Origin: an uncultured Clostridia bacterium
GTDB lineage: Bacteria; Bacillota; Clostridia; TANB77; CAG-508
Direction: 5' to 3'
Assembly (NCBI GenBank): GCA_944386715.1
Contig: CALXCD010000001.1
Span: 8,141 to 72,140 of the forward strand
DNA length: 64,000 bases
Shown one piece after another: positions 19,839 to 55,672 of this stretch. Below the pieces are notes generated by a model. It was not told the origin of the DNA, ran no database searches, and was given only the letters and a program-made list of their open reading frames with translations. The position numbers were made by a program, and so were the translations under genes. Numbering within the stretch: position 1 is the first letter of the stretch; every line of letters begins with the position of its first letter.

Positions 19839-19866
19839 AATTCCTCTCTATCTATATCAATTACTA

Positions 19867-30984: not shown

Positions 30985-33900
30985 TTAATATTCCATTGTA
31001 TAATATTTCCCGTCCGCTGATTTATTAAAAATAACTCTATCAGAATTAATTGTTATAACTGGACGTATACCATCTCCCTCTGGAAAAATAGTAGTAACTC
31101 CTGTTCCACTAAAAATTTCCCCATTTGCTTCTACATAATCAACTGCATCAGGATCCCAATCACTAATTAAAGGAGTTGCAAGAAGATAACGTGAAGAATC
31201 ATAAACATAATTAGACATGCCCTCTACATTTTTTAATTGATCCAACCTATATATTCCAGTTTCATCTTCAAATGTTTGAATTGTGTCTGTCGAAGATAAA
31301 TCTATGTTATATCTTGCTTTATTGATATTTGTTAAAGTTACCGTATTAAGCTTTACATTTCCGTTTTTAAATAAACTATTTCCCTTTAGCATAAACGGAT
31401 AATAATAGTCATAAACGTTACTTCCATTAGTAATAGAAATATAAGATCCTTTATTGTAACGCTCTTTTCCTTGTATTTCTCCATATTCAAATTCGATATC
31501 TCCCAAATTAGAATAAAGTCCAGCAGATACTGCTAAGCTATTATCACCAGCATAAGAAAACCAATCAGATGGCCATTCAAGTGCCTCTTCGAGTTCCTGT
31601 TGACCTAGTGCGTCTGTTACCCACCAATCATTATTTAGTTGAGAACCAAGCATATCAACCGCTACTTTTGCAGGTATCCCTGTACTAATTAATTTTACAT
31701 TAGAATAAGTTCCATCTTGATTATCTGTATAAGATAATAATCGCCATCCATTAGTAGTAGAATATTTATATTCTGGATAGTATACATCTGTATAAGCAAC
31801 ATCATATTTTACAAAATCTGCTGTTTCAGGTGGTTCTACATCATTAATTGTAATGGTATTACTTCCTGATACATCACTATAATTTCCATTTGTAGAATGA
31901 ATGTACCAATATACCGTAGTAGTTCCTGCTGAACTTCTAGAAGGCTTTGAAGTAGTTCCACTTGTTGAATAATTACTTGATGTTAGAGTACTTGATGTAC
32001 TATAATAAATATTACATCCATTTCTTGGTTCATTTACTACTAAAGTAATCGTATGACTATTTCCATCATAATCTCCAATATAATCTCCTGATGTTTTTTG
32101 AATTGCTTTTTTATTAATCGTAAATGCCTTTGTTGCATTTGTTAATGTATAGTTAGAAGTCTTTTTTCTTCCTCCTGTTACACTTTCTATACTTGCTGTT
32201 GATGTATGAGTTCCTGCACTAACTTCTGTTGTTCTTGTTATATTTAATGTTTCTCTACTTATTCCACTATCTGCACTTGCTGTCGGTGCTTGTGGTGAAC
32301 CATTATAAGTAAAGGTTGTCGTGCTTCCCCATGTTACTGATACACTCTTCTTATTTATTGTCCATGAAATACTTTTTGCTCCTGTTGTTCCATCACTCCA
32401 TGCATAATTTGATGTTGGTGTTGCTTTTGCTGTATATGTTCCTGCATCTATTGCTGATTGCGTTCCACTCCATGTTACTTGACTTCCTGTTACTCCTGTT
32501 TGTGTTGCACCATTATATGTTTTGTTTGCTGCCGATGCTGTTGCTGTTTTTGCTCTTGCTATTGTAAATTGCTTTGTATTTCCTGTTAATGTATAGTTTG
32601 ATGCTTTTCCTCTTCCTCCACTTACACTTGATATACTTGCTGTTGATGTATGTGTTCCTGCACCAATTTCTGTTGTTCTTGTAATATTAAGTGTTTCTCC
32701 ATAAATACCACTTGACGCACTTGCTGTTGGTCCTTGTGCTTTTCCATTGTATGTAAATGTTGTACTTCCCCATGTTACTGATACACTCTTTGGACTAATT
32801 CTCCAACTTAAATTTATGCTTGATGTGCTTCCATCTGACCATTGATAGTTGCCACTATCTTTTAGTGTTACAGTTGCTGTATAATTTCCTGCATCAGTTC
32901 CTGTATTTCCACTAATATTCATTGTACTTGAATTATATCCACTTACATTTAATGATTGTGTATTTCCATTATAAGTATAAGTTCCAGAAGCAGTTGGTTT
33001 TGCTACATTTATTTTAGTTACAGTAGCACTTCCATTATTAGTACTATCTGTAATATCCTTAAATGTTGCATTTGCATAGTTAGTTTTCTTAGCTGTTACC
33101 ACTACATAAATGTATTTTCCTACTAATCCATTACCTATCGTATAAGTTTTTCCTGTTGCCCCACTAATTGGTGTTCCTCCACTTGTTGAATTATATGTAT
33201 TAGAGTACCATTGATAACTTAATGTTGCATCTCCTGGATTTACATTTGTCTGAGCTGTTAAGGTTGAACCATATTGGTTGGTTCCTGTAATTGTTACACT
33301 TCCTGTAATTGTTGCATTTGTAATGTTAAATGCTTTTGTTGTATTGGTTAAAGTATAGTTAGAAGCTTTTCCTCTTCCTCCTGTTACACTTTCTATACTT
33401 GCTGTTGAGGTATAACTTCCTACATTTGTTCCTGTTGTTCTTGTTAAGTTAATTGTCTCTCCACTTACTCCACTTGTTGCTACTACAGTTGGTGCTTGCG
33501 CTTTTCCATTATATACGAAACTTGTTGTCTCTCCCCATGTTACTGAAATTTGTTTTGGATTGATTTTCCATCCTAATGATACTCCTGATGTAGTACCATC
33601 TGACCATTGATAATTGCTACTATCTTTTAATGTTACAGTAGCTGTATAATTTCCAGCATCTGTTCCTGTATTTCCACTTACATTCATCGTACTTGAATTA
33701 TATCCACTTAAACTTAATGTTTGGCTTGCACCATTATAAGTATAACTTCCAGAAACAGTTGGTTTTGCTACATTTATTTTAGTTACAGTAGCACTTCCAT
33801 TATTAGTACTATCTGTAATATCACTAAATGTCGCATTTGTATAGTTAGCTTTCTTAGCTGTTACTACTACATAAATATATTTTCCTACTAGTCCACTACC

Positions 33901-36900
33901 TATTTGATACGTTTTTCCTGTTGCTCCATTAATTGGTGTTCCTCCACTTGTTGAATTACTTGTATTAGAATACCATTGATAACTTAAAGTTGCATCTCCT
34001 GGATTGATACTAGTTTCTGCTGTTAATGTTGAACCATATTGGTTTGTTCCTGTTATCTTTACACTTCCCGTAATAGTTGCATTTGTAATAGTAAATGCTT
34101 TTGTTGTATTGGTTAATGTATAGTTAGATGCTTTTCCTCTTCCTCCTGTTACACTTGTTATACTTGCTATTGAGGTATAACTTCCTACATTTGTTCCTGT
34201 TGTTCTTGTTAAGTTAATGGTTTCTCCACTTACTCCACTTGTTGCTACTACAGTTGGTGCTTGTTCTTTTCCGTTATATACGAAACTTGTTGTCTCTCCC
34301 CATGTTACTGCTACTGATTTTGCATTAATTTTCCAACTTAAAGATACATTTCCTGTACTTCCATCTGACCATTGATAATTGCTACTATCTTTTAAGCTTA
34401 CGGTTGCTGTATAATTTCCTGCATCTGTTCCTGTATTTCCACTCACATTCATCGTACTTGAATTATATCCACTTAAACTTAATGTTTGAGTTGCTCCATT
34501 GTAAGTATAATTTCCTGTTGCAGTTGGTTTATTTAAGTTTATCTTAGTTACAGTAGCACTTCCGTTATTCGTACCATCTGTAATATCACTAAATGTTGCA
34601 TTTGCATAATTAGTTTTCTTAGCTGTTACCACTACATAAATATATTTTCCTACTAGTCCACTACCTATTTGATACGTTTTTCCTGTTGCTCCATTAATTG
34701 GTGTTCCTCCACTTGTTGAATTACTTGTATTAGAATACCATTGATAACTTAAAGTTGCATCTCCTGGATTGACACTAGTTTGAGCTGTTAATGTTGAACC
34801 ATATCGGTTTGTTCCTGTTATTTTAACACTTCCTGTAATCGTTGCATTTGTAATATTAAATGCTTTTGTTGCATTTGTTAATGTATAGTTAGAAGTTTTT
34901 CCTCTTCCTCCTGTTACATTCGTAATACTTGCTGTAGATGTATAACTTCCTACATCAATCTCTGTTGTTCTTGTAATATTAATGGTTTCTCCACTAACAC
35001 CACTTTCCGCACTTACTGTTGGTGCTTGTTCTTTTCCATTATAAACAAAACTTGTTGTATCTCCCCATATTACAGCCACTTCTTTTGCATTAATCTTCCA
35101 GCTTAAAGTCACATTAGATGTAGTTCCATCTGACCATTGATAGTTGCCACTATCTTTTAGTGTTACAGTTGCTGTATAATTTCCTGCATCAGTTCCTGTA
35201 TTTCCACTTACTGTCATATTTCCTGCATCAAATCCATTCAAAGTTAATGTTTGATTAGTTCCATTATAAGTATAATTTCCTGTTGCTGTTGGCTTTTGTA
35301 TACTTATTTTCATAACAGTTGCACTTCCGTTATTAGTTGGGTCTGTAATGTCACTAAATGTTACTTCATTATAATTGTCTTTTTTAGCTGTTACTACTAC
35401 ATAAATATATTTTCCTACTAATCCATCCCCTATTGTATAATCCTTTCTGTTTGCTCCATCAATTGGTGTTCCTCCATTTGTTGAATTAGTTGTATTAGAA
35501 TACCATTGATAAGTTAAAGTAGCATCTTCTGGATTTACATTAGTTTGGGCTGTCAAGGTTGAACCATATTGGTTGGTTCCTGTAATTGTTACACTTCCTG
35601 TAATTGTTGCATTTGTAATATTAAATGCTTTTGTTGTATTAGTTAGTATATAGTTAGCTGTCTTTTCTCTTCCTCCTGTTACACTTTCTAACTTAGCAGT
35701 TGAAGTATAACTTCCTACTTCTGTCTCTGTCGTTCTTGTCATATTAAGAGTTTCGCCATTAACACCACTTTCAGCACTTACTGTTGGTGCTTGTTCTTTT
35801 CCATTATAGACAAAACTTGTTGTTGTTCCCCATACTACTGCTACTTCTTTTGGATTAATTCTCCAGCTCAAAGTCACATTTGATGTAGTTCCATCTGACC
35901 ATTGATAGTTTTCACTATCTTTCAATGTTACAATTGCTGTGTAATCTCCTGCATCTATTCCAGTATTTCCACTAACATTCATTTTTTCTGCATCAAGTCC
36001 CTTTAAAGTTAATGTCTGAGTAGTTCCGTTATAAGTATAACTTCCTTCTGCTGTTGGTTTTTGTACATTTATCTTCATAACAGTTGCACTTCCGTTATTG
36101 GTTGGGTCTGTAATGTCACTAAAGCTTGCATTTCCATAGTTTGGTTTTTTCGCTGTTACTACTACATAAATATATTTTCCTGCTAATCCGCTTCCTACAG
36201 TATAATCTTTTTTATTCGCTCCATCAATTGGTGTTCCTCCACTAGCAACATTATTGCTACTAGAATACCATTGATAAGTTAAAGTTGCATCACTTGGATT
36301 TACTGTTGTTTCTGCTGTTAAAGTAGAACCGTATTGGTTTGTTCCTGTTATTTTCACACTTCCTGTGATAACTTGATTTGCTATACTAAATTCTTTTGTA
36401 GTTCCAATTAAAGTATAGTTAGAAACTTTTTCTCTTCCTCCTGTTACACTTTCCAATTTAGCAGTTGATGTGTAATTACCTACATTAGTTTCTGTCGTTC
36501 TAGTAATATTAAGTGTTTCACCTTCTACACCACTTTCGGCACTTGCTGTTGGTGCTTGTGGGTGTCCATTATATACAAAACTTGTTGTTTCTCCCCATAT
36601 TACTGGTATTTGTTTTGGATTTATTTTCCAACTTAGAGTCACATTAGCTATAGTTCCATCTGACCATTGATAGTTACTACTATCTTTTAATGTTACAGTT
36701 GCTGTATAATCTCCTGCATCAATTCCAGTATCTCCACTTATATTCATAACATTTGCATCATAACCATTTAAAGTTATTTTTTGATTTGTACCATTATAAC
36801 TATAAGTTCCAGAAACTGTTGGTTTTTCCAAGTTAGCTTTCATAACAGTAGCACTTTCGTTAGTATCACTATCTGTAATATCACTAAAGCTTACTTCACC

Positions 36901-39900
36901 ATAATTTGTCTTTTTCGCTGTTACCACTACATAAATGTATTTTCCTATTAAGCCATCTCCTACTGTATAATCTTTTTTATTCGCTCCATCAATTGGTGTT
37001 CCTCCTGTTGTACTTTCTGTTGTATTAGAATACCATTGATAGGTTAAAGTAGCATCTTCTGGGTTTACTACCGTTTGAGCTGTTAAAGTTGAACCGTATT
37101 GATTTGTTCCTATTATTGTTACATTTCCTACTATTTTATCATTTGTAATAGTAAATTCTTTTGTATTATTTGTTAAGGTATAATTAGAAACTTTTCCTCT
37201 TCCTCCTGTTACACTCTCAATACTTGCTACTGATGTATGTGTTCCTACATCTTTTGCCGTTGTTCTTACTACATTAATAACTTCTCCATTTACACCACTA
37301 GAAGCCTTTACTGTTGGAGCTTGTTCTTTTCCGTTATACACAAAGCTTGTGGTTATTCCCCATACAGCCTCTATACTTTTTGTATTAATTTTCCAGTCTA
37401 AAGTTAGCTCTGTCACGGTTCCATCTGACCATTGATAATTCTCACTATCTTTTAAGGATATTATTGCAGTATAATCTCCTGCATCTATTCCTGTATTTCC
37501 ACTTACATTCATAGTTGCTTGATCGAATTTATTTAAAGTTGCCGTTTGGTTTGTTCCGTTATATGTATAAGTTCCTGTAAGTGTTGGTTTTTCAACACTT
37601 ACTTTTATTACAGTTGCACTTTCGTTATTAGTTGGGTCTGTAATATCACTAAAGGTTGCCTCTCCATAATTAGGTTTTGTAGCTGTCACTTGTACATAAA
37701 TGTATTTTCCAATCAATCCCTTTCCTACTACATAATCTTTTTCGTTTGCCCCTTCAATTGGTGTTCCTTCTGTTGTGCTTTCTGTTGTATTAAAGTACCA
37801 TTGATAGGTTAAAGTAGCATCTTCTGGACTTACTACAGTTTGAGCTGTTAAAGTTGAACCATATTGATTTTTTCCTGTTATTTTAACATTTCCTGCTATT
37901 TTATCATTTGTAATAGTAAATTCTTTTGTTGTATTTGTTAAGGTATAGTTAGTTGTCTTTCCTCTTCCTCCTGTTACACTTTCAAGACTTGCTGTTGATG
38001 TATAGTTTCCTACAGTAATTGCTGTTGTTCTTGTAATATTAAGGTTTTCTCCATCTACTCCACTTTCTGCAGTTGCTGTTGGTGCTTGTTCTTTTCCATT
38101 ATAAACAAAGTTTGTCACATCTCCCCAAATTACCGCTATCGTTTTTGGATTAATTTTCCATGTAATTGTTTTTGCTTCTGTTGTTCCATCTTCCCATGTA
38201 TAATTTTCTTCTGGTGTTGCCGTTGCTGTATAAGTTCCTGCATCTATTGCTTCTATTGTTCCTGTTAATATAACATGGTTCCCATTAATACCTTTTTGAT
38301 TTGCACCATTATATATTTTTTCTTCCTCTGCTACTGCTGTTGCTGTTAGCGATTTTTGTACAGTTATTGTTTTGGTGATACTTGCCTCTTTTACTGTTTC
38401 TGTCCTTGCCATAATAGCTGTGATTTCTGAAGCTCCACCCACTGCTACTGGTGTTAATGTTCCTGTACTAGCATCTACTGTCAAATAGGTTGGATTAGAA
38501 GATTGGTAAGTAATTGCTCCTGCTGTTCCTCCTTCTCCACTCACCTTTACTGTTGCTTTTTTACTTGTATCACCATAGTATACAGTATCTGGTGTTGTAT
38601 TTTCCCATTCTAGTGTTCTAGTATATTTTTGTACGGTTATTGTTACTTCCTTACTTGTCTCTTTATAGTTATCGTTTCCTGCATCTGTTACTGTAACTAC
38701 TATTGTTTTATCTCCATCATCATTTATTGAGTTAGTTCCTGCTGTTAATGTATTTCCTTCTATTTTACTTCCTTGTGTTGTTTGATTTTTAATGCTATAA
38801 GTTACATTTCCTTTTGCATTACTTACTAATGTTGATAAATCTACTTTTTCTCCTACTTTAACTGTTTTACTTGTTACTGTCATTGGACTTTCTAATTTTG
38901 TTACTTCAAAACTATTGCTTACTTTTACTTCTTCTGCTCTATTTCCTGCTATATCTGTTACTCTTGTCCATAAGTAATAAGTTCCAGCTTTACAATCTTC
39001 CTTACTTACTGTTTCTCCATTTTCAAATGTCTTCCACTCTTCTTCTTTTGGTTGTTCGTCTTTACTTGTTGACCATGCATATTCTAATTTGTTTAATCCT
39101 GAACCTCCTTCATCTGCTGCTGTTAAAGTTGTTTTTATTGTTGCCTCTCCACTATCTGGCATTACCGTATTTCCCCCATTTGGAGTCAATGTTACAGTTG
39201 GTTTTATCTTATCAATATTACTTATTGTTATTTCTTTCGTTATTTCTTTACCTGATTCATCTTCTACTGTTACTGTTATAGTTTGATTATTTGTTTTTAT
39301 GATGACTTCTGTTTCATCTTTTATTTCGTAATCTATTCCTTCTGTTCCTGTTACTGTTATAGTTTTATCTCCTGTTATTCTATCATCATATTCTATTTTT
39401 ACTGTTACATCTTGGTTTGTCCAGTCTTTTGGATTTTGTGTTAATATGATTAAATTCTCTGTACTTGGTTTTACACTAAATTCTTTACTTACCTCAATTG
39501 CTTCATTTCCTGCTACATCTGTTATTCTTGTCCATAAATAATAACTTCCTTCTTCACAATCTTTTTTACTTACTGTTTGTTCATTTGTTAATGGTTCCCA
39601 TTCTTGTTCTGTTGGTCTTGTTGTATTTGAATTACTCCATGCATATTGTCGTGTATTTAATCCTGAACCTCCTTCATCTTTTGCTGTTACTTTCACTTCT
39701 ATTGTTCCATCTTCTGCTGATTGTTCAGTTGATGTATTAATTAATGTTTTTCCACAGTTTGTTCCCATAGAACATCCATAACCATTTATATCATAGTAAG
39801 TCGAATAACTTGCATGACTATCACATGTTACTGTTCCCCATTCTTGCCCACACTCATCACATTTCATCCAAACATTTTTAGTGGCTGGATTATTACAACC

Positions 39901-40596
39901 TACTACAACACATCCTGAACTTCCAGAATAAGATGTAATTCTATTTCCTCTTAATGTTCCTGAACATGTTTTCCTCTCCTCACAAGTTCCAGCACTAGTA
40001 CTATAATAACCTGAATGTGTTGGGCAATGATAATGCTCTTCTTTAAATGTAGCCTCACATACACTACAATAATACCCTGCTGTTTCAACAAAAAATTCTC
40101 CACCATTTGGATTTAATGTTACTGTTGGTTTTATTTTATCTATTCTTGTAATATCTGCCTTAGCACTCATATCTTTATATTCTGAGATTATTGTACAATT
40201 TTTTCCAATGATAAATTCCTGCTCATATTTTTTCTTAACACCATCAATTGTATAATATCTTTCATCTTCTGGAACTGAAGCCGGAAAAGTAATTTCTACT
40301 TTCAAATCCTGATTTGTCCATTGTTCTATTGGATAAACCTCCCCTGAAGATGCAAAATACAAAGCAATATGAATATTTCCATTTACTAAATCATTATATT
40401 CCTTTTCCATTTCCTTTTCATTACTGCTTTGTTCATAATGTTTTTGTATTGTTTTAACTTGTCTATTTTGTTCTGATACACTATTTACAGTATTGACATA
40501 AATTGCATAAGCAATAATTATGAAAAAAAGTATAGCTATTAAAACAAATAAAGTAATAGAACCTCTTTCTTTTCCATGATTTTTGAATTTACTCAT
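30985..40596 (-). CDS. Giant (3204-aa) repetitive surface adhesin: N-terminal hydrophobic anchor/prepilin-like segment, Cys/His-rich module, Ig-like modules, about 8 tandem 255-aa Y(N/D)G MBG-like repeat units
   Basis: Start set at the ATG at 40596, preceded by AGGAGAG. N-terminus MSKFKNHGKERG|SITLFVLIAILFFIIIAYAI. Repeat unit contains SFVYNGKEQAPT, QYGSTLTAQT and QWYSNT...KYIYVVVTAKK. The ORF-track N-terminal extension has no RBS. Confidence 0.8.
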   Translation of the reverse strand: MSKFKNHGKERGSITLFVLIAILFFIIIAYAIYVNTVNSVSEQNRQVKTIQKHYEQSSNEKEMEKEYNDLVNGNIHIALYFASSGEVYPIEQWTNQDLKVEITFPASVPEDERYYTIDGVKKKYEQEFIIGKNCTIISEYKDMSAKADITRIDKIKPTVTLNPNGGEFFVETAGYYCSVCEATFKEEHYHCPTHSGYYSTSAGTCEERKTCSGTLRGNRITSYSGSSGCVVVGCNNPATKNVWMKCDECGQEWGTVTCDSHASYSTYYDINGYGCSMGTNCGKTLINTSTEQSAEDGTIEVKVTAKDEGGSGLNTRQYAWSNSNTTRPTEQEWEPLTNEQTVSKKDCEEGSYYLWTRITDVAGNEAIEVSKEFSVKPSTENLIILTQNPKDWTNQDVTVKIEYDDRITGDKTITVTGTEGIDYEIKDETEVIIKTNNQTITVTVEDESGKEITKEITISNIDKIKPTVTLTPNGGNTVMPDSGEATIKTTLTAADEGGSGLNKLEYAWSTSKDEQPKEEEWKTFENGETVSKEDCKAGTYYLWTRVTDIAGNRAEEVKVSNSFEVTKLESPMTVTSKTVKVGEKVDLSTLVSNAKGNVTYSIKNQTTQGSKIEGNTLTAGTNSINDDGDKTIVVTVTDAGNDNYKETSKEVTITVQKYTRTLEWENTTPDTVYYGDTSKKATVKVSGEGGTAGAITYQSSNPTYLTVDASTGTLTPVAVGGASEITAIMARTETVKEASITKTITVQKSLTATAVAEEEKIYNGANQKGINGNHVILTGTIEAIDAGTYTATATPEENYTWEDGTTEAKTITWKINPKTIAVIWGDVTNFVYNGKEQAPTATAESGVDGENLNITRTTAITVGNYTSTASLESVTGGRGKTTNYTLTNTTKEFTITNDKIAGNVKITGKNQYGSTLTAQTVVSPEDATLTYQWYFNTTESTTEGTPIEGANEKDYVVGKGLIGKYIYVQVTATKPNYGEATFSDITDPTNNESATVIKVSVEKPTLTGTYTYNGTNQTATLNKFDQATMNVSGNTGIDAGDYTAIISLKDSENYQWSDGTVTELTLDWKINTKSIEAVWGITTSFVYNGKEQAPTVKASSGVNGEVINVVRTTAKDVGTHTSVASIESVTGGRGKVSNYTLTNNTKEFTITNDKIVGNVTIIGTNQYGSTLTAQTVVNPEDATLTYQWYSNTTESTTGGTPIDGANKKDYTVGDGLIGKYIYVVVTAKKTNYGEVSFSDITDSDTNESATVMKANLEKPTVSGTYSYNGTNQKITLNGYDANVMNISGDTGIDAGDYTATVTLKDSSNYQWSDGTIANVTLSWKINPKQIPVIWGETTSFVYNGHPQAPTASAESGVEGETLNITRTTETNVGNYTSTAKLESVTGGREKVSNYTLIGTTKEFSIANQVITGSVKITGTNQYGSTLTAETTVNPSDATLTYQWYSSSNNVASGGTPIDGANKKDYTVGSGLAGKYIYVVVTAKKPNYGNASFSDITDPTNNGSATVMKINVQKPTAEGSYTYNGTTQTLTLKGLDAEKMNVSGNTGIDAGDYTAIVTLKDSENYQWSDGTTSNVTLSWRINPKEVAVVWGTTTSFVYNGKEQAPTVSAESGVNGETLNMTRTTETEVGSYTSTAKLESVTGGREKTANYILTNTTKAFNITNATITGSVTITGTNQYGSTLTAQTNVNPEDATLTYQWYSNTTNSTNGGTPIDGANRKDYTIGDGLVGKYIYVVVTAKKDNYNEVTFSDITDPTNNGSATVMKISIQKPTATGNYTYNGTNQTLTLNGFDAGNMTVSGNTGTDAGNYTATVTLKDSGNYQWSDGTTSNVTLSWKINAKEVAVIWGDTTSFVYNGKEQAPTVSAESGVSGETINITRTTEIDVGSYTSTASITNVTGGRGKTSNYTLTNATKAFNITNATITGSVKITGTNRYGSTLTAQTSVNPGDATLSYQWYSNTSNSTSGGTPINGATGKTYQIGSGLVGKYIYVVVTAKKTNYANATFSDITDGTNNGSATVTKINLNKPTATGNYTYNGATQTLSLSGYNSSTMNVSGNTGTDAGNYTATVSLKDSSNYQWSDGSTGNVSLSWKINAKSVAVTWGETTSFVYNGKEQAPTVVATSGVSGETINLTRTTGTNVGSYTSIASITSVTGGRGKASNYTLTNTTKAFTITNATITGSVKITGTNQYGSTLTAETSINPGDATLSYQWYSNTSNSTSGGTPINGATGKTYQIGSGLVGKYIYVVVTAKKANYTNATFSDITDSTNNGSATVTKINVAKPTVSGSYTYNGASQTLSLSGYNSSTMNVSGNTGTDAGNYTATVTLKDSSNYQWSDGTTSGVSLGWKINPKQISVTWGETTSFVYNGKAQAPTVVATSGVSGETINLTRTTGTNVGSYTSTASIESVTGGRGKASNYTLTNTTKAFNITNATITGSVTITGTNQYGSTLTAQTNVNPGDATLSYQWYSNTYNSTSGGTPISGATGKTYTIGNGLVGKYIYVVVTAKKTNYANATFKDITDSTNNGSATVTKINVAKPTASGTYTYNGNTQSLNVSGYNSSTMNISGNTGTDAGNYTATVTLKDSGNYQWSDGSTSSINLSWRISPKSVSVTWGSTTFTYNGKAQGPTASASSGIYGETLNITRTTEIGAGTHTSTASISSVSGGRGKASNYTLTGNTKQFTIARAKTATASAANKTYNGATQTGVTGSQVTWSGTQSAIDAGTYTAKATPTSNYAWSDGTTGAKSISWTINKKSVSVTWGSTTTFTYNGSPQAPTASADSGISRETLNITRTTEVSAGTHTSTASIESVTGGRKKTSNYTLTNATKAFTINKKAIQKTSGDYIGDYDGNSHTITLVVNEPRNGCNIYYSTSSTLTSSNYSTSGTTSKPSRSSAGTTTVYWYIHSTNGNYSDVSGSNTITINDVEPPETADFVKYDVAYTDVYYPEYKYSTTNGWRLLSYTDNQDGTYSNVKLISTGIPAKVAVDMLGSQLNNDWWVTDALGQQELEEALEWPSDWFSYAGDNSLAVSAGLYSNLGDIEFEYGEIQGKERYNKGSYISITNGSNVYDYYYPFMLKGNSLFKNGNVKLNTVTLTNINKARYNIDLSSTDTIQTFEDETGIYRLDQLKNVEGMSNYVYDSSRYLLATPLISDWDPDAVDYVEANGEIFSGTGVTTIFPEGDGIRPVITINSDRVIFNKSADGKYYTMEY
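32560..38350. repeat. Tandem array of about 8 near-identical repeats of about 765 nt inside the giant adhesin gene
   Basis: The landmark string CCTCCTGTTACACTTTC(T/C)A..CTTGCTGTTGA recurs at about 32611, 33381, 34146, 34911, 35675, 36441, 37203, 37965. Confidence 0.85.
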
Positions 40597-44600: not shown

Positions 44601-45208
44601 TTTTGTTCACTTGCTCCCTCTAATTCTTTTTTGATAGAATCAGATAACTTATCTAAATCAACTTCTTCTAACAACTCTCTTAAAGCTTCTGCTCCCATTT
44701 TTGCTTTAAAAGAACCTCTTCCATATTTTTCTTCTGCCTCGTGATATTCTTTTTCATTCAATACTTGGCATTTTTCTAATCCTGTATCACCTTTATCCAC
44801 AACAATATAAGATGCAAAATAAATAACTTTTTCTAAATTTCTTGGTGAAATATCCAAAATCAAAGCAATTCTACTTGGGATTCCTTTAAAATACCAAATA
44901 TGTGCAACAGGTGCAGCAAGTTCGATATGTCCCATTCTCTCACGTCTTACCTTAGATTTCGTTACCTCAACACCACAACGGTCACAGACGATTCCTTTAT
45001 ATCTTACTCTTTTATATTTACCACAATGACATTCCCAGTCTTTTGTTGGTCCAAATATTCTTTCACAAAATAAACCATCTTTTTCTGGTTTTAAAGTTCT
45101 ATAATTGATAGTCTCTGGTTTTTTTACCTCACCTTTTGACCACTCTCTTACCTTCTCATCTGATGCGATTCCTATTTTTAACTTATTAAAAATATCTAAT
45201 TCGTCCAA
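41687..45208 (-). CDS. rpoC: DNA-directed RNA polymerase subunit beta-prime
   Basis: 1173-aa product with zinc-binding [21 protein letters not shown] and catalytic [12 protein letters not shown] start preceded by GAAGGGGGA. Confidence 0.95.
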
Positions 45209-45412: not shown

Positions 45413-45907
45413 TTACACTTCTCTTTCTTCTTCCTTATCTGTCTTTTCTTCTAACATTCCTTGTGTCCAAAATACTTTTAGCCAGGTAGCATATCTGTCT
45501 CTATTTCTTTCATCCTGCTGTGTTAAATGTTCCAATATAGATTCTTCCGTAATTTCCTTATTTTGCTGTTTCATTTGTCCCATTGTTTCCTTGATTTTTT
45601 GCATCGCACGATTTCTTAAATGTATCGCTTCTATTTGTTCTCTTTCCACATGATTTCTATCTACTATGGCAACATTATCTACATAAGTTAATATTTTACT
45701 TAATCTTAGTTTTGCTTCGCTAACAGCTTGATGTTTTAAACCCAAATATGGCAAACTCTCTATACCTAAATTATTTACAATTTCATCAAAATTAACAAAA
45801 GCTCCATTTGGCAATTTTCCAACCGTATTACATATCCCTTTTACCAAAGTATTTCTTATTGCTTCTCTTGTATTAATTTCATATTTGGGAATCTCTAATC
45901 TACTCAT
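45413..45907 (-). CDS. Hypothetical 164-aa protein encoded between rpoB and rpoC (helical, Glu/Lys-rich C-terminus)
   Basis: Intact ORF starting 11 nt after the rpoB stop with RBS AAGAGGAAAA. 204-nt spacer before rpoC. Composition matches the host genome. No recognisable motif. Confidence 0.6.
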   Translation of the reverse strand: MSRLEIPKYEINTREAIRNTLVKGICNTVGKLPNGAFVNFDEIVNNLGIESLPYLGLKHQAVSEAKLRLSKILTYVDNVAIVDRNHVEREQIEAIHLRNRAMQKIKETMGQMKQQNKEITEESILEHLTQQDERNRDRYATWLKVFWTQGMLEEKTDKEEEREV

Positions 45908-45918
45908 GTTTTTTCCTC

Positions 45919-48900
45919 TTATTCTATGATGTCATTTTCATCATCTAGATTATCGTTTGCTAAATCATTATCAAATAATAATTCATCACCCTCATCATCT
46001 AAATCCTGAAACAATTCGTCATCTCCATCATCATAATCATCTGTTTCATCTAGTAATACATCATCTTCTGTATCTTCTCCATAGCCATCTAAATCTTCGT
46101 CTGCTACAATTTCTTCTTCTGTTAATAATTTTTTATCTTTTTCAGGATCGTATTCAATTCCTTCTTCAATATTTTCTTTTAATTCTAATTCTTGATTATC
46201 TCCTGAATATAATCTAACATCTAATCCTAAAGATTGTAATTCTTTTACTAAAACTTTAAAGCTTTCAGGAACTCCTGGCTCTGGAACATTTTCACCTTTT
46301 ACAATAGCTTCATAGGTTTTTACTCTTCCCACAACATCATCTGATTTAACAGTCAACATTTCTTGTAATGTATAAGCTGCACCATAAGCTTCTAATGCCC
46401 AAACTTCCATCTCTCCAAAACGTTGTCCACCAAATTGTGCTTTTCCTCCTAAAGGTTGTTGTGTTACTAATGAATATGGTCCTGTTGAACGAGCATGTAT
46501 TTTGTCATCTACTAAGTGGTGTAGTTTTAACATATACATAACCCCTACTGTAATAGGTTTATCAAATGGGTCTCCTGTTCTTCCATCATATAAAATAGTT
46601 TTTCCATCTTTACTCATTCCGGCTTTTTCTAGTATTTCCTCTACATCTTTTTGTGTTGCTCCATCAAATACTGGTGTTGAAACTTTCCATCCTAATGCTT
46701 TTGCAGCACCTCCTAAATGTACTTCTAAAACTTGCCCTAAGTTCATACGAGAAGGTACACCTAGTGGATTTAATAAAATGTCAATTGGTGTTCCATCTGG
46801 CATAAATGGCATATCTTCTTCTGGTAATACTCTTGAAATAACACCCTTATTACCATGACGTCCTGCCATCTTATCACCAACAGATATCTTTCTCTTTGTT
46901 GCAATATAACATCTTATAATTTGATTTACACCAGGTCCTAATTCATCAGAATTATCTCTTGTAAAGATTTTAACATCTACTATGGTTCCTGCTTCTCCAT
47001 GTGGTACTCTTAAAGAAGTATCTCTTACTTCTCTTGCTTTTTCTCCGAAAATAGCACGTAATAATCTTTCTTCAGCTGTTAATTCTGTTTCTCCTTTTGG
47101 TGTAACCTTACCAACTAAAATATCTCCTGGTCTTACTTCTGCACCAATACGAATAATTCCATTTTCGTCTAAGTCTTTTAAAGAATCATCACCCACATTT
47201 GGAATATCTCTTGTAATTTCTTCTGCTCCTAATTTAGTATCACGACATTCACAATCATATTCTTCAATGTGAATAGAAGTAAATACATCTTCTTTTACTA
47301 GTCTTTCATTAATTAAAATAGCATCTTCATAGTTATAACCTTCCCAAGTAGAAAATGCAACTAATACATTTTTACCAAGTGCCATTTCTCCATTTTGTGT
47401 AGATGGTCCATCTGCAATTGCTTCTCCTTTTTTTACTTTTTCTCCGGCTTTTACAATTGGTTTTTGATTAATACATGTCCCACCATTTGTTCTCTTGAAT
47501 TTACGCAATTTATGTACTATTGTTTTTCCGCTTTTATATTTTACAGTAATTGCATCACCTGTAACTTTTTCTATTACTCCATCTTCTTCTGCTAAAATTA
47601 AAATTCCTGAGTCTTTTGCTGCTCTATATTCAATTCCTGTTCCTACAATTGGAGATTCTGTAATCATTAATGGAACTGCTTGACGTTGCATGTTAGCTCC
47701 CATTAAAGCTCTTTTTGCATCATCATGCTCTAAGAATGGTATCATTGCTGCTGCAATAGATACTAATTGTTTTGGTGATACATCTACATATTGTACTTTA
47801 TCTCTATCTACTTCTATTACTTCATTTCTGTATCTAACTCTAATTCTTTCATTTTTTAGACATCCTTTTTCATCAATTGGTTCTGAAGCTTGAGCTATAA
47901 TATAATTATCTTCTACATCTGCACTCATGTATTCTACAATATCTGTTAATTGATGTGTTTTTGAATCAATCTTTCTATATGGTGTTTCAATAAATCCATA
48001 TTCATTAATAATTGTAAAAGATGATAATGCAGAAATTAATCCGATATTTGGTCCTTCTGGAGATTCAATTGGACATAATCTACCATAATGAGTATAGTGA
48101 ACATCACGAACCTCAAATCCTGCTCTTTCTCTTGTTAATCCACCAGGTCCTAAAGCAGAAATTCTTCTTTTATGTGTCAACTCTGAAAGTGGATTTGTTT
48201 GATCCATAAATTGTGATAATTGTGAACTTCCAAAGAATTCTCTTATGGCTGATGTAATTGGCTTTGTATTAATTAAAGTTTGTGGTGTAATAACATCTAA
48301 ATCTTGAATAGTCATTCTTTCACGAACAACTCTTTCTAATCTTGTTAAACCAATTCTAAATTGATTTTGCAATAATTCTCCAACACAACGGATTCTACGA
48401 TTTGCTAAATGGTCAATATCATCTATTTTTCCAAGTCCATGAGAAAGATTTAATAAGTAATTAATAGATGCAATCATATCTTCTGTTGTAATATGCTTTG
48501 GAACTAATTCATCATATCTTTCTTGTAATACTTTTACTAAATCTTTTTCTTCTGTATTATCTATGATATTTTTCAATACATTGTAATTTACTAATTCTTT
48601 AAAATGTAATTTGCTTAAATCTACATTTGGTAAAACAGCATGAATATTTACGGTACTATTACCAATAACTCTTACTTTTCTTTCGCCAACCATAACATCT
48701 ACTATGTTAATACCCGCATTTTGAATGGCTTCTGCAAGATCTTCTTGAATTACTTCTCCTGCTTGTACCAAAACTTCTCCTGTTTCAGCATCCATAATAT
48801 CTTCAGCAGCAATTTTATCTTGGATTCTAGTAGCTAAATTTAATTTTTGATTAAATTTATATCTTCCTACTTTTGCTAAATCATATCTTCTATTATCATA

Positions 48901-49689
48901 GAACAATCCATTAAATAAATTTCTAGCAGCATCTACTGTTGGAAGTTCTCCTGGTCTTAACTTTTTATAAATTTCAATTAATGCTTCTTCTTGGTCTTTA
49001 ATGGTATCTTTTGCAATAGTAGCTGTTAGCATTTCTTCATCACCAAATAGTTCTCTTATTTGGTCATCTGAAACAACACCAATAGCACGAAGTAAAGTGG
49101 TAACAGGTAATTTTCTTGTCCTATCTACACGAACATAAAAAACATCATTACCATCAGTTTCATATTCAAGCCAAGCACCACGAAGTGGCATAACAGTGGA
49201 TGTATATGTTTTCTTTCCAGTCTTGGTATCAAATTCTTCTGCATAATAACAACCTGGTGAACGAACTAACTGACTAACTACAACTCTTTCTGCTCCGTTA
49301 ATGATAAATGTTCCACTATCTGTCATTAACGGAAAATCTCCTAAGTAAATTTCTTGCTCTTTAATTTCTCCTGTTTCACGATTGATTAATCTAACCTTTA
49401 CGTGTAATCTAGTAGAATAAGTAGCATCTCTTTCTTTTGCTTCTTCTACTGTATATTTTGTCTTATCCTCCATGTAATAATCGAAAAATTCAAGAACTAA
49501 ATTTCCAGAATAGTCTTCTATTGGTGAAATATCTCTTAATACTTCTCCCAATCCTTCCTCTACAAACCAGTCATATGAATCTTTTTGAACTTTAATTAGG
49601 TTTGGCATTTCAATATAATCCCCAACCTTTGCGAAATCCTTACGAGATGCCTTCTCGTATTTGACATCTTTTAATTCCAAAAAAATCAC
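45919..49689 (-). CDS. rpoB: DNA-directed RNA polymerase subunit beta
   Basis: 1256-aa product with conserved rifampicin cluster and C-terminal acidic tail. Start is GTG at 49689 or TTG at 49680. Confidence 0.95.
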
Positions 49690-51287: not shown

Positions 51288-52040
51288 TTAAAATATTTCT
51301 AATCCCACTGGGCAATGGTCACTTCCCATTACTTCAGGATAAATTGTAGCTTCTTTTATTTTATCTTTAATACTTTCAGAAACTATAAAATAATCTATTC
51401 TCCAACCTACATTTTTTTCTCTTGCTCTTCCCATATATGACCACCAGCTATAAGCTCCTTCTTTTTTTGGGTACAAATATCGATAAGTATCAATAAATCC
51501 AGAATTTAATAATTCTGTCATTTTATTTCTTTCCTCATTTGTAAATCCTGCATTACCTTTATTAGTTTTTGGATTTTTTAAGTCTATTTCGTTATGTGCT
51601 ACATTTAAATCTCCACACATAATAACTGGTTTTTTATTATTTAAATTTAATATATATTTTCTAATTTCATCTTCCCATATTTGTCTATAATCTAGTCTTT
51701 CCAATTCTCTTTTAGAATTAGGAGTATAAATATTTACCATATAAAAGTTCTCATATTCTAATGTGATAACTCTACCTTCTTTGTCATGCTCTTCTATTCC
51801 AATTCCATATTGTACTTGCATTGGCTTTTGTTTGGTAAAAATAGCTGTCCCAGAATATCCCTTTTTTTCTGCACTATTCCAATAACTAGTATATCCTTCA
51901 AATTCCAAATCAATTTGTCCTGATTGGCATTTTGTTTCTTGAATACAAAAAATATCTGCATCTATTTGTTTAAAAAATTCTTCAAATCCTTTATTGACAC
52001 ATGCTCTTATTCCATTTACATTCCATGAAATTAATTTCAT
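51288..52040 (-). CDS. xth: Exodeoxyribonuclease III (AP endonuclease)
   Basis: MKLISWNVNGIRA...CIQETK and C-terminal GSDHCPV. Start placed at the ATG with AGGAGA RBS, not the upstream ORF-track ATG. Confidence 0.88.
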   Translation of the reverse strand: MKLISWNVNGIRACVNKGFEEFFKQIDADIFCIQETKCQSGQIDLEFEGYTSYWNSAEKKGYSGTAIFTKQKPMQVQYGIGIEEHDKEGRVITLEYENFYMVNIYTPNSKRELERLDYRQIWEDEIRKYILNLNNKKPVIMCGDLNVAHNEIDLKNPKTNKGNAGFTNEERNKMTELLNSGFIDTYRYLYPKKEGAYSWWSYMGRAREKNVGWRIDYFIVSESIKDKIKEATIYPEVMGSDHCPVGLEIF

Positions 52041-52134
52041 CGTTTTTTCTCCTCTTTTATCAAATAACTTTTTCATTTTTTTATCTTACTATATTTTCTT
52101 ATAAATTTCAATATTTTTAGTAACTTTCCTTTTG

Positions 52135-52195
52135 TAGAAAAAAGAGAACTTTAATAATTTACTTACTTAAAAAAGTAAATTATTAAGCTCTCTTT
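52135..52195 (-). terminator. Roughly 20-bp imperfect hairpin followed by T-run, terminator of the pilin-like surface protein gene
   Basis: AGAGAACTTTAATAATTTAC / GTAAATTATTAAGCTCTCT arms, followed by TTTTTTCTAC on the minus strand. Confidence 0.5.
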
Positions 52196-52235: not shown

Positions 52236-54314
52236 TTAATAAGTATAAAATTCGTTACTTACTTTTCTTGCTATACTTCCATCATCATAAGTTACTTCTA
52301 CCCACAAATAATATGACGTTCCATAAGATGTTTTATATGCAGTTGTAGAATTTGATGAGAATGTTGTCCAAGACGTTGGTTCTGATGTACTTGAAGTACT
52401 CCATCCATATCTTCTTTTTGTTATATTTGAACCATTTGGGCTTATTGATATTGTACTACTAAATGATGCTGAACCAGCTGAATATGTAGACCTCTTTACC
52501 GCTGTCTTACCACATTCAACCGATTTCATATATGTCTCACCACAAGGCTCTTTTCCATAATCATCTACTACCTCACTCAAATGATGTTGATCACAATTAT
52601 GTGCAGTTTCCATATATCTACCACAAACATTACATCCATACATATTTTGTCTAACCGCCCATCTCGTACATCCAGGATATGAGCACCTTATCTGTCCTGG
52701 TTCAATTACACTCTCAGTCAATTGACCTTTTATTCCTGGGCAAATATAAGGTTCTCTTACTAGGGTTGTACAAGTATAAGAATAACTTTTATATCCACTA
52801 TGACCATCAGGGCAATGATAATGTGGCGTTGAATCAGATTGTCTACATTCACTACAGTAATATGATCCTGCACTCTGATAAAATCCTCCGCCATTTGAAC
52901 TAAATGATATTGTAGGTGATGCTGACTCTATTATAATGGTATTACTTCCTGACACATCACTATAATTTTCATTTGTAGAGTGAATATACCAATATACTGT
53001 TGTTGTTCCTGCTGAACTTCTAGAAGGCTTTGAAGTAGTTCCACTTGTTGCATAATTACTTGATGTTAGTCTTGTGGATGTACTGTAATAAATGTTACAT
53101 CCATTTCTTGGTTCATTTACTACTAAAGTAATCGTATGACTATTTCCATCATAATCTCCACTATAATCCCCTGATGTTTTTTGAATTGCCTTTTTATTTA
53201 TTGTAAATTCTGTTGTTGCATTTGTTAATACATAATTAGATGTCTTTCCTCTTCCTCCTGTTACACTTGCTATACTCGCTGTTGATGTATGAGTTCCTGC
53301 ACTAACTTCTGTTGTTCTTGTTATATTTAATGTTTCTCCACTTATTCCACTATCTGCACTAGCTGTTGGTGCCTGTGGTGAACCATTATAGGTAAAACTG
53401 GTTGTATTTCCCCATGTTACTGCTACAGATTTTGGATTGATTTTCCAAGAAATTGTTTTAGGCATTTTTGTTCCATCACTCCAAGTACTATTAGAAGATG
53501 GTGTTGCCGTTACTGTATATGTTCCAACATCTATTGCTGTTCTTGTACCACTCCATGTTACATTATTTCCACTAACCCCTGTTTGCTCTTTTCCATTATA
53601 TACTTTATCACTACTTGTCGTTATTGTAGCGGTTGAACTTCCTTCTAATGTGACTTTTTTAGTTGATTTCTTTTCTTCTCCTTCTAATGTTCCAGTTGCT
53701 GTTACTGTATAAACTCCCTCTCCTTTTACAGTAAAGCTTGCTTCTCCTTCACCTGTTACATTTTCATTTTTCTCAATATTATTCCCTGCTGCATCTTTTA
53801 ATGTAATCTCTAAATTTTCAAATTTATCTTTATTTGGAATACTAACTGTAATGATAACTTTTTCATAATATTTACTAGGATCTATTGGTTCTCCATTTAA
53901 TTGATACACTTTTACTTTAATAAGTGGCTTCATATTCGTACTATCATAAATATCTCCTGTCTCCTTATCAATAATAACATCCACATCATCTATTGTTACA
54001 GTAATGGTATCTTCATCTTCTGCAATTTCTGGATCATATCGATCCAAATGGTCTCTTACATTATCTTTAAACTGTTCCGAATCAAATTCTCCTCTCTTAT
54101 CATAAGTATGCACTGCTTCTGCTCTTACTAATTCTTCTATTTGTGTCCTTTTGGTTGCATCTTCTGCTTTATTAGCATTTTTAAGTACACTATTATCTCC
54201 TGTTAATGTCGCAATTGTTATTCCTGCTAAAATTAACAAAATAATGATAATAACGACTAATGCTATTAAAGTAACTCCATTTTCTTTCATCTCTTTTTCT
54301 TTAAAACTCCTCAT
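52236..54314 (-). CDS. 692-aa surface protein paralogous to the giant adhesin: prepilin-like N-terminus, Ig-like region, one MBG-like unit, Cys/His-rich module
   Basis: N-terminus MRSFKEKEMKENG|VTLIALVVIIIILLILAGI resembles a class-III (type IV pilin) signal peptide. Shares about 90% nucleotide identity with 31860-32350 over about 490 nt. Shared YYCSxC...HYHCPxxHSGY module. Confidence 0.75.
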   Translation of the reverse strand: MRSFKEKEMKENGVTLIALVVIIIILLILAGITIATLTGDNSVLKNANKAEDATKRTQIEELVRAEAVHTYDKRGEFDSEQFKDNVRDHLDRYDPEIAEDEDTITVTIDDVDVIIDKETGDIYDSTNMKPLIKVKVYQLNGEPIDPSKYYEKVIITVSIPNKDKFENLEITLKDAAGNNIEKNENVTGEGEASFTVKGEGVYTVTATGTLEGEEKKSTKKVTLEGSSTATITTSSDKVYNGKEQTGVSGNNVTWSGTRTAIDVGTYTVTATPSSNSTWSDGTKMPKTISWKINPKSVAVTWGNTTSFTYNGSPQAPTASADSGISGETLNITRTTEVSAGTHTSTASIASVTGGRGKTSNYVLTNATTEFTINKKAIQKTSGDYSGDYDGNSHTITLVVNEPRNGCNIYYSTSTRLTSSNYATSGTTSKPSRSSAGTTTVYWYIHSTNENYSDVSGSNTIIIESASPTISFSSNGGGFYQSAGSYYCSECRQSDSTPHYHCPDGHSGYKSYSYTCTTLVREPYICPGIKGQLTESVIEPGQIRCSYPGCTRWAVRQNMYGCNVCGRYMETAHNCDQHHLSEVVDDYGKEPCGETYMKSVECGKTAVKRSTYSAGSASFSSTISISPNGSNITKRRYGWSTSSTSEPTSWTTFSSNSTTAYKTSYGTSYYLWVEVTYDDGSIARKVSNEFYTY

Positions 54315-54736: not shown

Positions 54737-55672
54737 CTATTTTACTACACTTACTGGTAAGTATCTTACTCCCCATGCTAAAGCTTCTGCATGAGAGCTA
54801 ACATATAAGTCAATTTTATTTCCACTAATTGCTCCACCTCTATCTTCTACTGTATAAACCTTACCATTTAAACTTAATTTTGTACCAAAAGCAAATCTAG
54901 CTGGTGCTGCAATTGTTCTACCTGCTGTAGCTCTTGTTCCTGATGCTGTAATTCCTGTCGTTTTACCACAACATTTTGCACAAGAACAATAAGCTGTTAC
55001 TTTATAAATTTCACCACTTGCACCTGTAGAAGTTGTTCTTGGTAAAGAAGAACCTCTTGAAGTAGTAGTGACTGTTTTTTGTACTTGTACGATTTTATCT
55101 TGTGGCTCTGTAATTACTTTCTCAGAAATCACTGTTTTTTCAATCTCTACATCATTTTGATATTTTATTTTATAAGTAATTTCTTTTAATCCGTCTTTTC
55201 CTTGTTGTAATACTTTATTTTTTGTATTTTGTGTTGTACCTGTTGTATTTTTTGTGATAGTTTCAAATGGGATTGGTACTTGTTCTACCACTATTTTTTC
55301 TGTAATAGGTGCATAATTTTCTAATAATTGTTCCAAAGATGTTTCTACACCTTCTTCAGAAATATTTGCTATTTGAACTTCATTATATGACTTATCTGTA
55401 ATTTTGATACTTTCCCCTGCATTCACTTGTGCTTCTAAATCTGGTATCGTTTTTTGATTTTCTTCCAATACGATATTATTTTCTTCTAATATTTCAGAAA
55501 CTGTTTCTTTTCCGGTTAATGCCGTCATTTCATATCCATTTTGAAGTATTATTTTAACATCTTTTAAGTTTGTATTTACTGCCATTACTCCTATTCCTGA
55601 TATTAGAATTAAAATAATGCTTATGCATATAATTCGCATAATCGATATAGAAGCTTTTTCTTCTTTTTTCAT
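54737..55672 (-). CDS. Cell-wall-binding 3D-domain protein (DUF348-G5-3D architecture, YabE/Rpf-like)
   Basis: N-terminal TM. G5-like middle. C-terminal 3D domain YKVTAYCSCAKCCGKTTGITASGTRA...IDLYV. Consensus TTGACA-17-TATAAT promoter at 55705-55743. Confidence 0.75.
   Translation of the reverse strand: MKKEEKASISIMRIICISIILILISGIGVMAVNTNLKDVKIILQNGYEMTALTGKETVSEILEENNIVLEENQKTIPDLEAQVNAGESIKITDKSYNEVQIANISEEGVETSLEQLLENYAPITEKIVVEQVPIPFETITKNTTGTTQNTKNKVLQQGKDGLKEITYKIKYQNDVEIEKTVISEKVITEPQDKIVQVQKTVTTTSRGSSLPRTTSTGASGEIYKVTAYCSCAKCCGKTTGITASGTRATAGRTIAAPARFAFGTKLSLNGKVYTVEDRGGAISGNKIDLYVSSHAEALAWGVRYLPVSVVK

Follow-up and report, generated by a model that had tools for sequence, protein, structure and literature searches.

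The DNA considered here, a 64-kb window (the whole stretch analysed) of contig CALXCD010000001.1 that we assign to an uncultured gut Clostridia bacterium of 30% GC, appears to carry two genes for modular cell-surface proteins: a gene coding for 692 amino acids (aa), and a giant gene coding for 3203 aa. We term their sites the A locus, which lies between the G5/3D gene and exoIII, and the B locus, which lies between rpoC and gdpP (28696-30714). With a probability of roughly 0.6, the two loci exchange sequence non-reciprocally through a shared block of 430-670 nucleotides (nt) at the end of their repeat stalks. The evidence comprises the block itself, the presence of the complete C-terminal tail and 3' flank of one gene at the locus of the other in other metagenomes, and mosaic alleles whose breakpoints fall within the block. 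A further, more tentative matter is the N-terminus of the 692-aa protein, which resembles that of type IV prepilins and belongs to a very large family.

A shared block between two loci

The features on which the comparison rests are these, all on the minus strand:

52236..54314 (-): open reading frame (ORF) of 692 aa with an ATG start, its translation agreeing with that quoted earlier; it represents the A1 allele of the variable A locus and has the G5/3D gene (54737-55672) and exoIII (51288-52076) as neighbours
52930..53601 (-): A copy of the shared block, coding for aa 239-461 with MBG-like units and a terminal 'YDG..H..YYSTS' unit
53314..53360 (-): deletion junction; within this 47-nt exact run the window leaves repeat copy 1 of the 1429-aa allele and continues as copy 2
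52515..52928 (-): Cys/His-rich module with the conserved motif YYCSxC-x7-8-HYHC; it covers aa 463-600 and sits in a loop of the C-terminal immunoglobulin (Ig)-like domain
52239..52514 (-): C-terminal Ig-like 'YGWSTSS' domain, aa 601-692, which aligns with the uninterrupted 'YAWS' domains of the giant protein
52078..52195 (-): 3' flank of the A locus, with a terminator hairpin at 52141-52195 (-23 kcal/mol, z -6.1) and a 50-nt piece at 52078-52127
41687-45208, 45413-45907 and 45919-49689 (-): rpoC, a 164-aa ORF and rpoB, between the block copies; Pfam labels from orthologous contigs
30985..40596 (-): giant gene of the B locus, 3203 aa from MSKFKNHGKERG↓SITLFVLIAILFF, with an MSKF start at 40596; also 3203 aa in contig L008
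31847..32518 (-): shared block, B copy, inside the giant gene directly before its C-terminal tail; identical or 99.9% identical in L007, L008 and L011
30985..31845 (-): 'NDVEPP...' C-terminal tail cassette of the giant gene, aa 2918-3203 and the stop codon
30895..30950 (-): terminator hairpin downstream of the giant gene (-17.6 kcal/mol, z -5.5), which travels with the NDVEPP tail in A3 alleles

An earlier note on this DNA had described the 692-aa gene as a partial paralog of the giant gene that shares with it a near-identical segment of about 490 nt, and the block match supports this. Self-comparison of the window returns two direct-repeat matches with the same offset of 21083 nt: 31847-32146 against 52930-53229 (92%) and 32115-32414 against 53198-53497 (84%). 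With blastn, 52930-53601 aligns with 31847-32518 without gaps at 86.46% over 672 nt (E=0), which places the block far beyond chance. The identity of 90-95% given earlier was slightly generous, the ungapped value over 52930-53430 being 90.6%, at the low end of that range; within 60-nt windows from 52940 to 53389 it varies from 83 to 98%, and the longest exact runs common to the two copies measure 66, 61 and 46 nt. Directly outside the block only 23-47% of positions are identical. At the protein level the best segment joins aa 217-467 of the 692-aa protein to aa about 2674-2923 of the giant protein (79% over 251 aa, or 753 nt), in agreement with the similarity of about 800 nt that had been reported. 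Synonymous divergence (dS) between the two copies is 0.21-0.30 and non-synonymous divergence (dN) 0.05-0.06 in the block core, while the flanks are unalignable: the shared block is far younger than the unalignable remainder of both genes. Both copies lie on the minus strand, with genes for an AI-2E-family permease, exonuclease III, RpoB, the 164-aa protein and RpoC between them; they are thus direct repeats around rpoBC, as the note had it.

For comparison 30 loci were fetched, all of them short-read metagenome contigs except L004. Four contigs from different samples, L007, L008, L010 and L011, reproduce the 3' part of the giant gene with both block copy and tail, and L008 covers the entire giant gene at 99.97% over 13.9 kb. 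The block copy of the 692-aa gene, together with the Cys/His tail and exoIII, is found at 98.7-99.9% in L017, L018 and L021-L024. Because the two arrangements recur in four (giant) and six (692-aa tail) independent assemblies, the block copies are not a chimera, the alternative of a chimeric join that the note had itself raised. The exact 692-aa protein is represented by two contig records only, probably of the same assembly; a search of genome contigs with it returned one locus, from the metagenome-assembled genome (MAG) of an uncultured Clostridia bacterium, and the representative of its protein cluster is a truncated 324-aa form present on 14 contigs. Three further independent contigs, L009, L014 and L016, all start at window position 31011, 27 codons before the stop of the giant gene; this common break is consistent with a tail that is repeated or polymorphic in those samples.

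The A locus, as read from contigs that share the neighbouring permease protein, is a polymorphic accessory site with four states among the contigs compared. State A0 (L019 and L026) is empty, exoIII following directly after the G5/3D gene. A1 is the 692-aa gene of the window. A2 is an intact 1429-aa gene in L021, L022 and L023. A3 (L001-L003, from two projects) is at least 98% identical to A2 up to the shared block, from where it continues into the NDVEPP tail of the giant gene (97.8% to window 32337-30903). The A3 stretch holds 82 nt of the B-locus 3' flank, terminator hairpin included, and is joined to unique sequence just upstream of exoIII; a B-type tail and B-type terminator thus stand at the A locus between A-locus flanks. 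All three A3 copies are disrupted, by an AGA to TGA change at codon 460 in L001 and L002 and by a 188-nt deletion in L003. Genetic code 4, with TGA as Trp, was considered for L001/L002 and rejected: under table 11 rpoB, rpoC and other long ORFs are unbroken, and TGA hence does not code for an amino acid. As a separate observation, the stop codons of 23 large ORFs of the window are TAA (18) and TAG (5), with no TGA.

The converse arrangement is seen in L004, L005 and L006, where the gene flanked by rpoC and gdpP has the Cys/His and YGWSTSS tail at its end. L004 is a noisy long-read contig (rpoB 93.7%, gdpP 87.6%), L005 has rpoC at 97.3%, and L006 is a GTDB representative MAG, again an uncultured Clostridia bacterium. 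Behind this tail, L004 and L005 have the terminator of the A type (94% to 52266-52133) as well as the 50-nt piece (98% to 52127-52078). Neither the 50-nt piece nor the A-type terminator flank occurs in the empty sites of L019 and L026, so the piece belongs to the cassette and not to exoIII, and does not mark a direction of transfer; the same absence led us to reject 52078-52127 as the native exoIII promoter, which would have implied transfer from A to B.

Within the block, 39 diagnostic sites distinguish the A2 allele of L021 from the B copy of the window. The A copy of the window is A-type at 37 of these 39. In L017 and L022, by contrast, the sites read in order as 7 A-type, 16 B-type and 16 A-type, with the B-type tract at columns 325-441 in gene orientation (about window 53161-53277) and a size of 117-243 nt. 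In the A3 alleles the change from A-type to B-type comes at about column 403, and the B-type sequence runs on into the tail. Every breakpoint falls within the shared block, which on this ground can be viewed as a recombination hinge for the tail cassettes. Gene conversion between the two surface genes had earlier been put forward as a possibility, to be checked by comparing strains for mosaicism; that comparison was positive, both for switches between A-type and B-type inside the block and for the presence, in other metagenomes, of entire C-terminal tails, 3' flanks included, at the opposite locus.

Relative to the 692-aa protein, the 1429-aa protein of A2 has 737 additional residues, placed after about aa 335, and is otherwise the same. 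Read in gene direction, the DNA of the window is identical to A2 repeat copy 1 as far as about 53361 and, from about 53313 on, to copy 2, so that the 692-aa form is A2 minus 2211 nt (737 codons) in frame, with the crossover inside the 47-nt run. The alignment thus makes the 692-aa form look like a derivative of the 1429-aa allele by in-frame deletion; the missing 2211 nt were lost either through real recombination or because the assembler took a shortcut. At the empty sites (L019 8940-9080; L026 1150-1200) we noticed a long perfect palindrome of TTGGCATTGGTTCCA(A/G)G units between the G5/3D terminator and exoIII, longer in L019 than in L026, which could be an element of the repetitive extragenic palindrome (REP) or miniature inverted-repeat transposable element (MITE) kind, or a scar.

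Leader and modules of the two proteins

The remaining modules of the two proteins, again on the minus strand, are:

54210..54314 (-): class-III-like N-terminus of the 692-aa protein, a 13-aa hydrophilic leader to Gly13 (54276-54314) and then the 22-residue hydrophobic tract VTLIALVVIIIILLILAGITIA
53940..54209 (-): aa 36-125, a small alpha/beta head with helices at 43-68 and 79-89 and three strands at 96-116; AlphaFold2 (AF2) pLDDT 88.2
53640..53936 (-): Ig-like beta-sandwich, aa 127-225, from the AF2 model of aa 1-230; pLDDT 84.7
39727..40104 (-): aa 165-290 of the giant protein, its Cys/His module
32758..38210 (-): tandem array of seven 765-nt repeats in the giant gene, 71-80% identical to the shared block (blastn)

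The leader of the 692-aa protein reads MRSFKEKEMKENG↓VTLIALVV, where the arrow marks the putative cleavage site. The earlier note had matched it to the prepilin consensus with a single replacement, of Glu at +5 by Ala. The sequence and the replacement are as described, but +1 is also changed, to Val from Phe, so that this is not a consensus leader with one substitution. A phmmer search with aa 1-125 against 1.84 billion representatives returned 13,819 matches at E<=1e-3, these being clusters at 50% identity, of which 622 reach E<=1e-10; their lengths span 96-1485 aa, and the leaders mostly have 5-30 residues. Among the 145 best representatives, Gly is found at -1 in 142, Ile at +1 in 135 and Val in the other 10, Thr at +2 in 144, Leu at +3 in 137 and Ile at +4 in 136; at +5, 136 have Ala and one has Glu. 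Since Ile or Val at +1 and Ala at +5 are near-invariant, the leader is not that of a prepilin which lost Glu5 and instead marks a distinct conserved family. This family, G↓ITLIALV, has no Pfam or NCBIfam model.

A class III signal consists of a hydrophilic leader ending in Gly or Ala followed by about 21 hydrophobic residues (PMC8179133). The 692-aa protein has such a leader, ending in Gly, and its hydrophobic tract forms a helix at 12-38 in the model. When a profile of 37 N-terminal domains of the family was compared with the PDB, type IV pilins came first (MshA, two geopilins, Thermus PilA5 over 107 residues, and PilA) and made up 5 of the 10 best matches; they align in register at the cleavage site, with marginal E-values of 0.009-0.07. 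Several homologues with the same repeat modules (P0018, P0058, P0060, P0062 and P0109) carry canonical KKGFTLxE leaders and PF07963. In the AF2 models (aa 1-230; aa 1-128) the transmembrane helix 12-38 is interrupted at TGDN (39-42) and followed by the two helices and three-stranded sheet of the head, a predicted helix-break-helix and small sheet of pilin-like topology, and then by an Ig-like sandwich at 133-223. The top Foldseek matches of the aa 1-230 model are Ig/FN3-like domains, none at E<=0.001, and for the alpha/beta head Foldseek gave no PDB fold match with E<1.

Behind the Ig-like sandwich come three beta-rich units and the Ig-like 'YGWS' domain, in the first loop of which, by an alignment of eight copies, sits the Cys/His insert, about 130 residues long and fast-evolving. 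The Cys/His module has no Pfam and no PDB match. In Pfam and NCBIfam neither the two full proteins nor isolated regions of them match above threshold, the only weak hits being GspG, FliL, ZirU and DUF4330, and a PHROGs search gave only families of unidentified function. What the note had called an MBG unit resembles that domain by motif (YNG...DxGxYT...NY...I.W.I) as judged by eye; it is not, however, recognised by the Pfam MBG models (PF17883, PF18676 and PF18887), which match neither the 692-aa protein, nor the giant protein, nor the isolated repeat region even at E<=10, a precomputed PF18676 match existing only in some relatives (P0017, P0021 and P0022). We hence speak of MBG-like units. 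The shuffled domain order reported earlier is evident: the Cys/His module precedes the repeats in the giant protein and follows them in the 692-aa protein. Neither protein has an LPXTG or other recognised wall anchor, or a Sec-type signal.

The N-terminus of the giant protein itself (KERG↓SITLFVLIAILFFIIIAYAIY, 40500-40596 (-)) fits the generic class-III outline and belongs to a second conserved leader class, without a Pfam match, which we also find in P0010, P0026, P0319, P0322, P0324, P0350 and P0362. Its NDVEPP tail has no Pfam or PDB relatives. The module recurs C-terminally in proteins of 320-500 aa from other Clostridia (P0317-P0367), at least 29 of 51 of which have a G↓ITLIALV leader and several the giant-type G↓SIxxFVLV..F leader. 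As the same module stands behind both, either leader type can carry the same modules, and the two are interchangeable in this role; this distribution indicates that module shuffling between leader classes extends well beyond this genome.

A proposed exchange, its alternatives and the status of the leader

By the proposed exchange, the interchangeable modules would be an N-terminal anchor, Ig-like domains, MBG-like beta repeats, a Cys/His insert and alternative C-terminal tails. The shared block, encoding the last stalk units before the tail, would provide homology between loci 21 kb apart and in direct orientation; RecA-type recombination would start in the block and copy the downstream tail and 3' flank to the other locus, the distal junction forming without long homology. 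A reciprocal crossover between the direct copies would excise rpoBC, presumably a lethal event, so that only conversion-type products would persist. The outcome would be diversified adhesive tails and a variable stalk length of a surface fibril, the stalk changing by in-frame recombination between repeats. The products are putative adhesins, whose ligand-binding tails and stalk length may be diversified by exchange.

Several observations weigh against this proposal. The exchange is documented between strains and not within a clone. The block copies of the window are 7.7-13.5% diverged, in keeping with their dS, so the last exchange in the window strain was not recent; and the process could be slow population-level recombination rather than a dedicated mechanism of variation. 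Neither tail has a Pfam or PDB match (phmmer of both against PDB sequences gave nothing meaningful), and the adhesin role is a prediction. With the exception of L004, moreover, the comparison sequences are short-read contigs: the ends of the L017/L022 tract coincide exactly with the 61- and 66-nt exact runs, the longest, and both contigs come from one project, so that de Bruijn bulge removal could mimic this tract. The 692-specific deletion junction is known from this MAG contig alone, its 57-mer being absent from all 30 fetched loci and from the JGI metagenome collection, which apparently lacks the species; a 45-mer specific to copy 1 has no match in metagenome contigs either. From such points one could argue that the block, the 692-aa structure and the mosaics are all mis-joined similar repeats of short-read metagenome assembly, given that the window itself comes from a MAG contig, that the 692-specific junction lies in a 47-nt exact repeat without independent support and that several contigs break at repeats. 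We consider this highly improbable: both block copies and their flanks are reproduced in the independent assemblies listed above, which come from several projects; the A3 tail joins unique sequence without a long shared k-mer, and does so in two projects; the long-read contig L004 has the converse arrangement; and a 47-nt repeat is below the usual final k of SPAdes or MEGAHIT. The A3 junction and L004 are thus not open to the bulge-removal objection. Only a little less improbable is a static paralogy, in which an old partial duplication was followed by purifying selection that held the stalk-end units similar, all allelic differences arising by recombination or deletion within a locus. The dN/dS of about 0.2 in the block, the divergence of the window copies and the conservation of the same units across distant relatives would all fit it; yet synonymous divergence in the block, at 0.2-0.3, is much lower than in the flanks, which cannot be aligned; alleles of the A locus contain 16 and 19 B-type sites in a row; and the 3' flanks accompany the tail at the other locus. 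The terminators and the 50-nt piece being non-coding, selection on the protein cannot explain their travelling. Beyond plain exchange, there might be a dedicated cassette-exchange system, in which the hinge block lets giant, Glu5-less pilin-type tip adhesins swap tails, disrupted A alleles serve as silent donors, the placement of rpoBC filters for conversion products and G↓ITLIALV is a large undescribed class of pilin-like display anchors in Clostridia; we regard this extended version as unlikely.

The leader was weighed in a comparable manner. In one account, built on sequence and on analogy with known pilins, G↓(I/V)TLIALV would be a class-III signal cleaved after Gly13 by a prepilin peptidase, and the Glu5-less protein would reside at the membrane or cap a short type-4 filament; we give it nearly, but not quite, an even chance. 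A Glu5-less subunit does cap type-4 filament tips (PMC10191384), and the N-terminus of GspG is matched at E 1.4e-3. Against it stand the absence of Phe or Met at +1 and of Glu at +5, the subthreshold score of Pfam PF07963 N_methyl (IPR012902; 13.3 bits against a cut-off of 21.2, E 0.063), the lack of a pilin fold match in Foldseek for the N-terminal models, and the absence of pilus or prepilin-peptidase genes from the 64-kb window and from the neighbourhood of the relative P0075. GspG TIGR01710 likewise scores 18.7 bits against a cut-off of 88.85. The competing account, a real possibility at somewhat under even odds, takes the N-terminus for a signal-anchor that stays uncleaved, or for a signal of the Sec type, with no relation to type-4 filaments, so that the proteins would be wall-spanning, membrane-tethered fibrils with a convergent likeness to prepilins. 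It would accommodate the departures just named, as well as the setting of family members as orphan genes: P0075 stands alone among housekeeping genes, and within 10 kb of P0075 and P0018 there are no genes for a prepilin peptidase or type-4 filament machinery. In addition, a full-text literature search found no paper printing the motif TLIALV. What a generic anchor would not need, however, is the near-invariance of Gly-1 and of positions +1 to +8 in 145 diverse representatives; nor would one expect pilins, in register, as the best PDB profile matches, canonical GFTLxE leaders on homologues with the same repeat modules, or the predicted pilin-like topology. We accordingly use 'pilin-like' as a working hypothesis, for a resemblance and not for a proven pilin.

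Comparison with known systems and other features of the window

Surface variation by segmental gene conversion is known from Neisseria pilE/pilS, Mycoplasma genitalium mgpB/mgpC-MgPar (MgPa/MgPar) and Borrelia vlsE. The loci described here are similar in having dispersed copies with conserved blocks beside variable segments, and in the non-reciprocal transfer and mosaic alleles, for which the evidence here is mostly short-read; in other strains, the disrupted A3 alleles are candidates for silent donors. They differ in several respects: there are only two loci, both intact in the window, each with its own start codon, leader and terminator, and no promoter-less donors feeding one site; whole C-terminal domains with terminators are exchanged instead of minicassettes; and, unlike the pilE G4, no initiating element was identified, and the exchange is known between strains only. 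A second point of reference is the giant repeat adhesins of Firmicutes with Ig-like or MBG-type repeats and variation in repeat number, such as Ebh, SasG/Aap and Mub-type proteins. Common to both are very long tandem beta-sandwich stalks with in-frame expansion or deletion between repeats (here 692 vs 1429 aa, and the seven 765-nt units); in contrast to those adhesins, the present proteins lack a known wall anchor such as LPXTG, a Sec-type signal and a Pfam MBG match, and are apparently anchored via the N-terminal pilin-like helix.

Modular pilins are widespread (PMC8179133). The modular type IV pilins, namely PilB and PilC of Streptococcus sanguinis, CofB and the GspK-type tip subunits, are alike in their leader ending in Gly, the hydrophobic tract of about 21 residues, the small N-terminal module and the bulky non-pilin modules behind it. 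They are set apart from the present family by Ile or Val at +1 and Ala at +5 family-wide, the subthreshold N_methyl score, the lack of a pilin fold match and the lack of linked machinery; the sizes of 692-3203 aa found here compare with 860 aa for the largest modular pilin of that survey (PMC8179133).

Should the exchange be borne out, an uncultured lineage of gut Clostridia would diversify its largest surface proteins by copying C-terminal binding domains and terminators between two loci, with consequent strain-level variation in the adhesion or immune visibility of a commensal, by a logic comparable to antigenic variation in pathogens. The G↓ITLIALV leader, as the mark of a very large unannotated family, is the most open-ended element of the finding; if the family depends on prepilin peptidase, the modular type-4 pilin repertoire of monoderm bacteria would grow substantially.

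A few further features of the window deserve mention. The 164-aa ORF between rpoB and rpoC (45413-45907 (-)) has no Pfam match, is followed by a 204-nt gap and is also called in L017, L018, L020, L024 and L025. The dnaB gene (26840-28175 (-)) is split by a frameshift into a 281-aa ORF (27330-28175) and a 165/172-aa ORF (26840-27358), with an overlap near GCTATCCGGACC. At least eight independent contigs (L007-L014) show this split too, so that it does not stem from a local error of sequencing; the frameshift could be programmed, or the helicase truly split. Finally, 17625-23532 (-) codes for two large secreted proteins with type I dockerins, one combining a papain-type Peptidase_C1 domain with the dockerin and the other BspA-type LRR_5 repeats with the dockerin, which suggests a cohesin-dockerin system of surface display in this organism.

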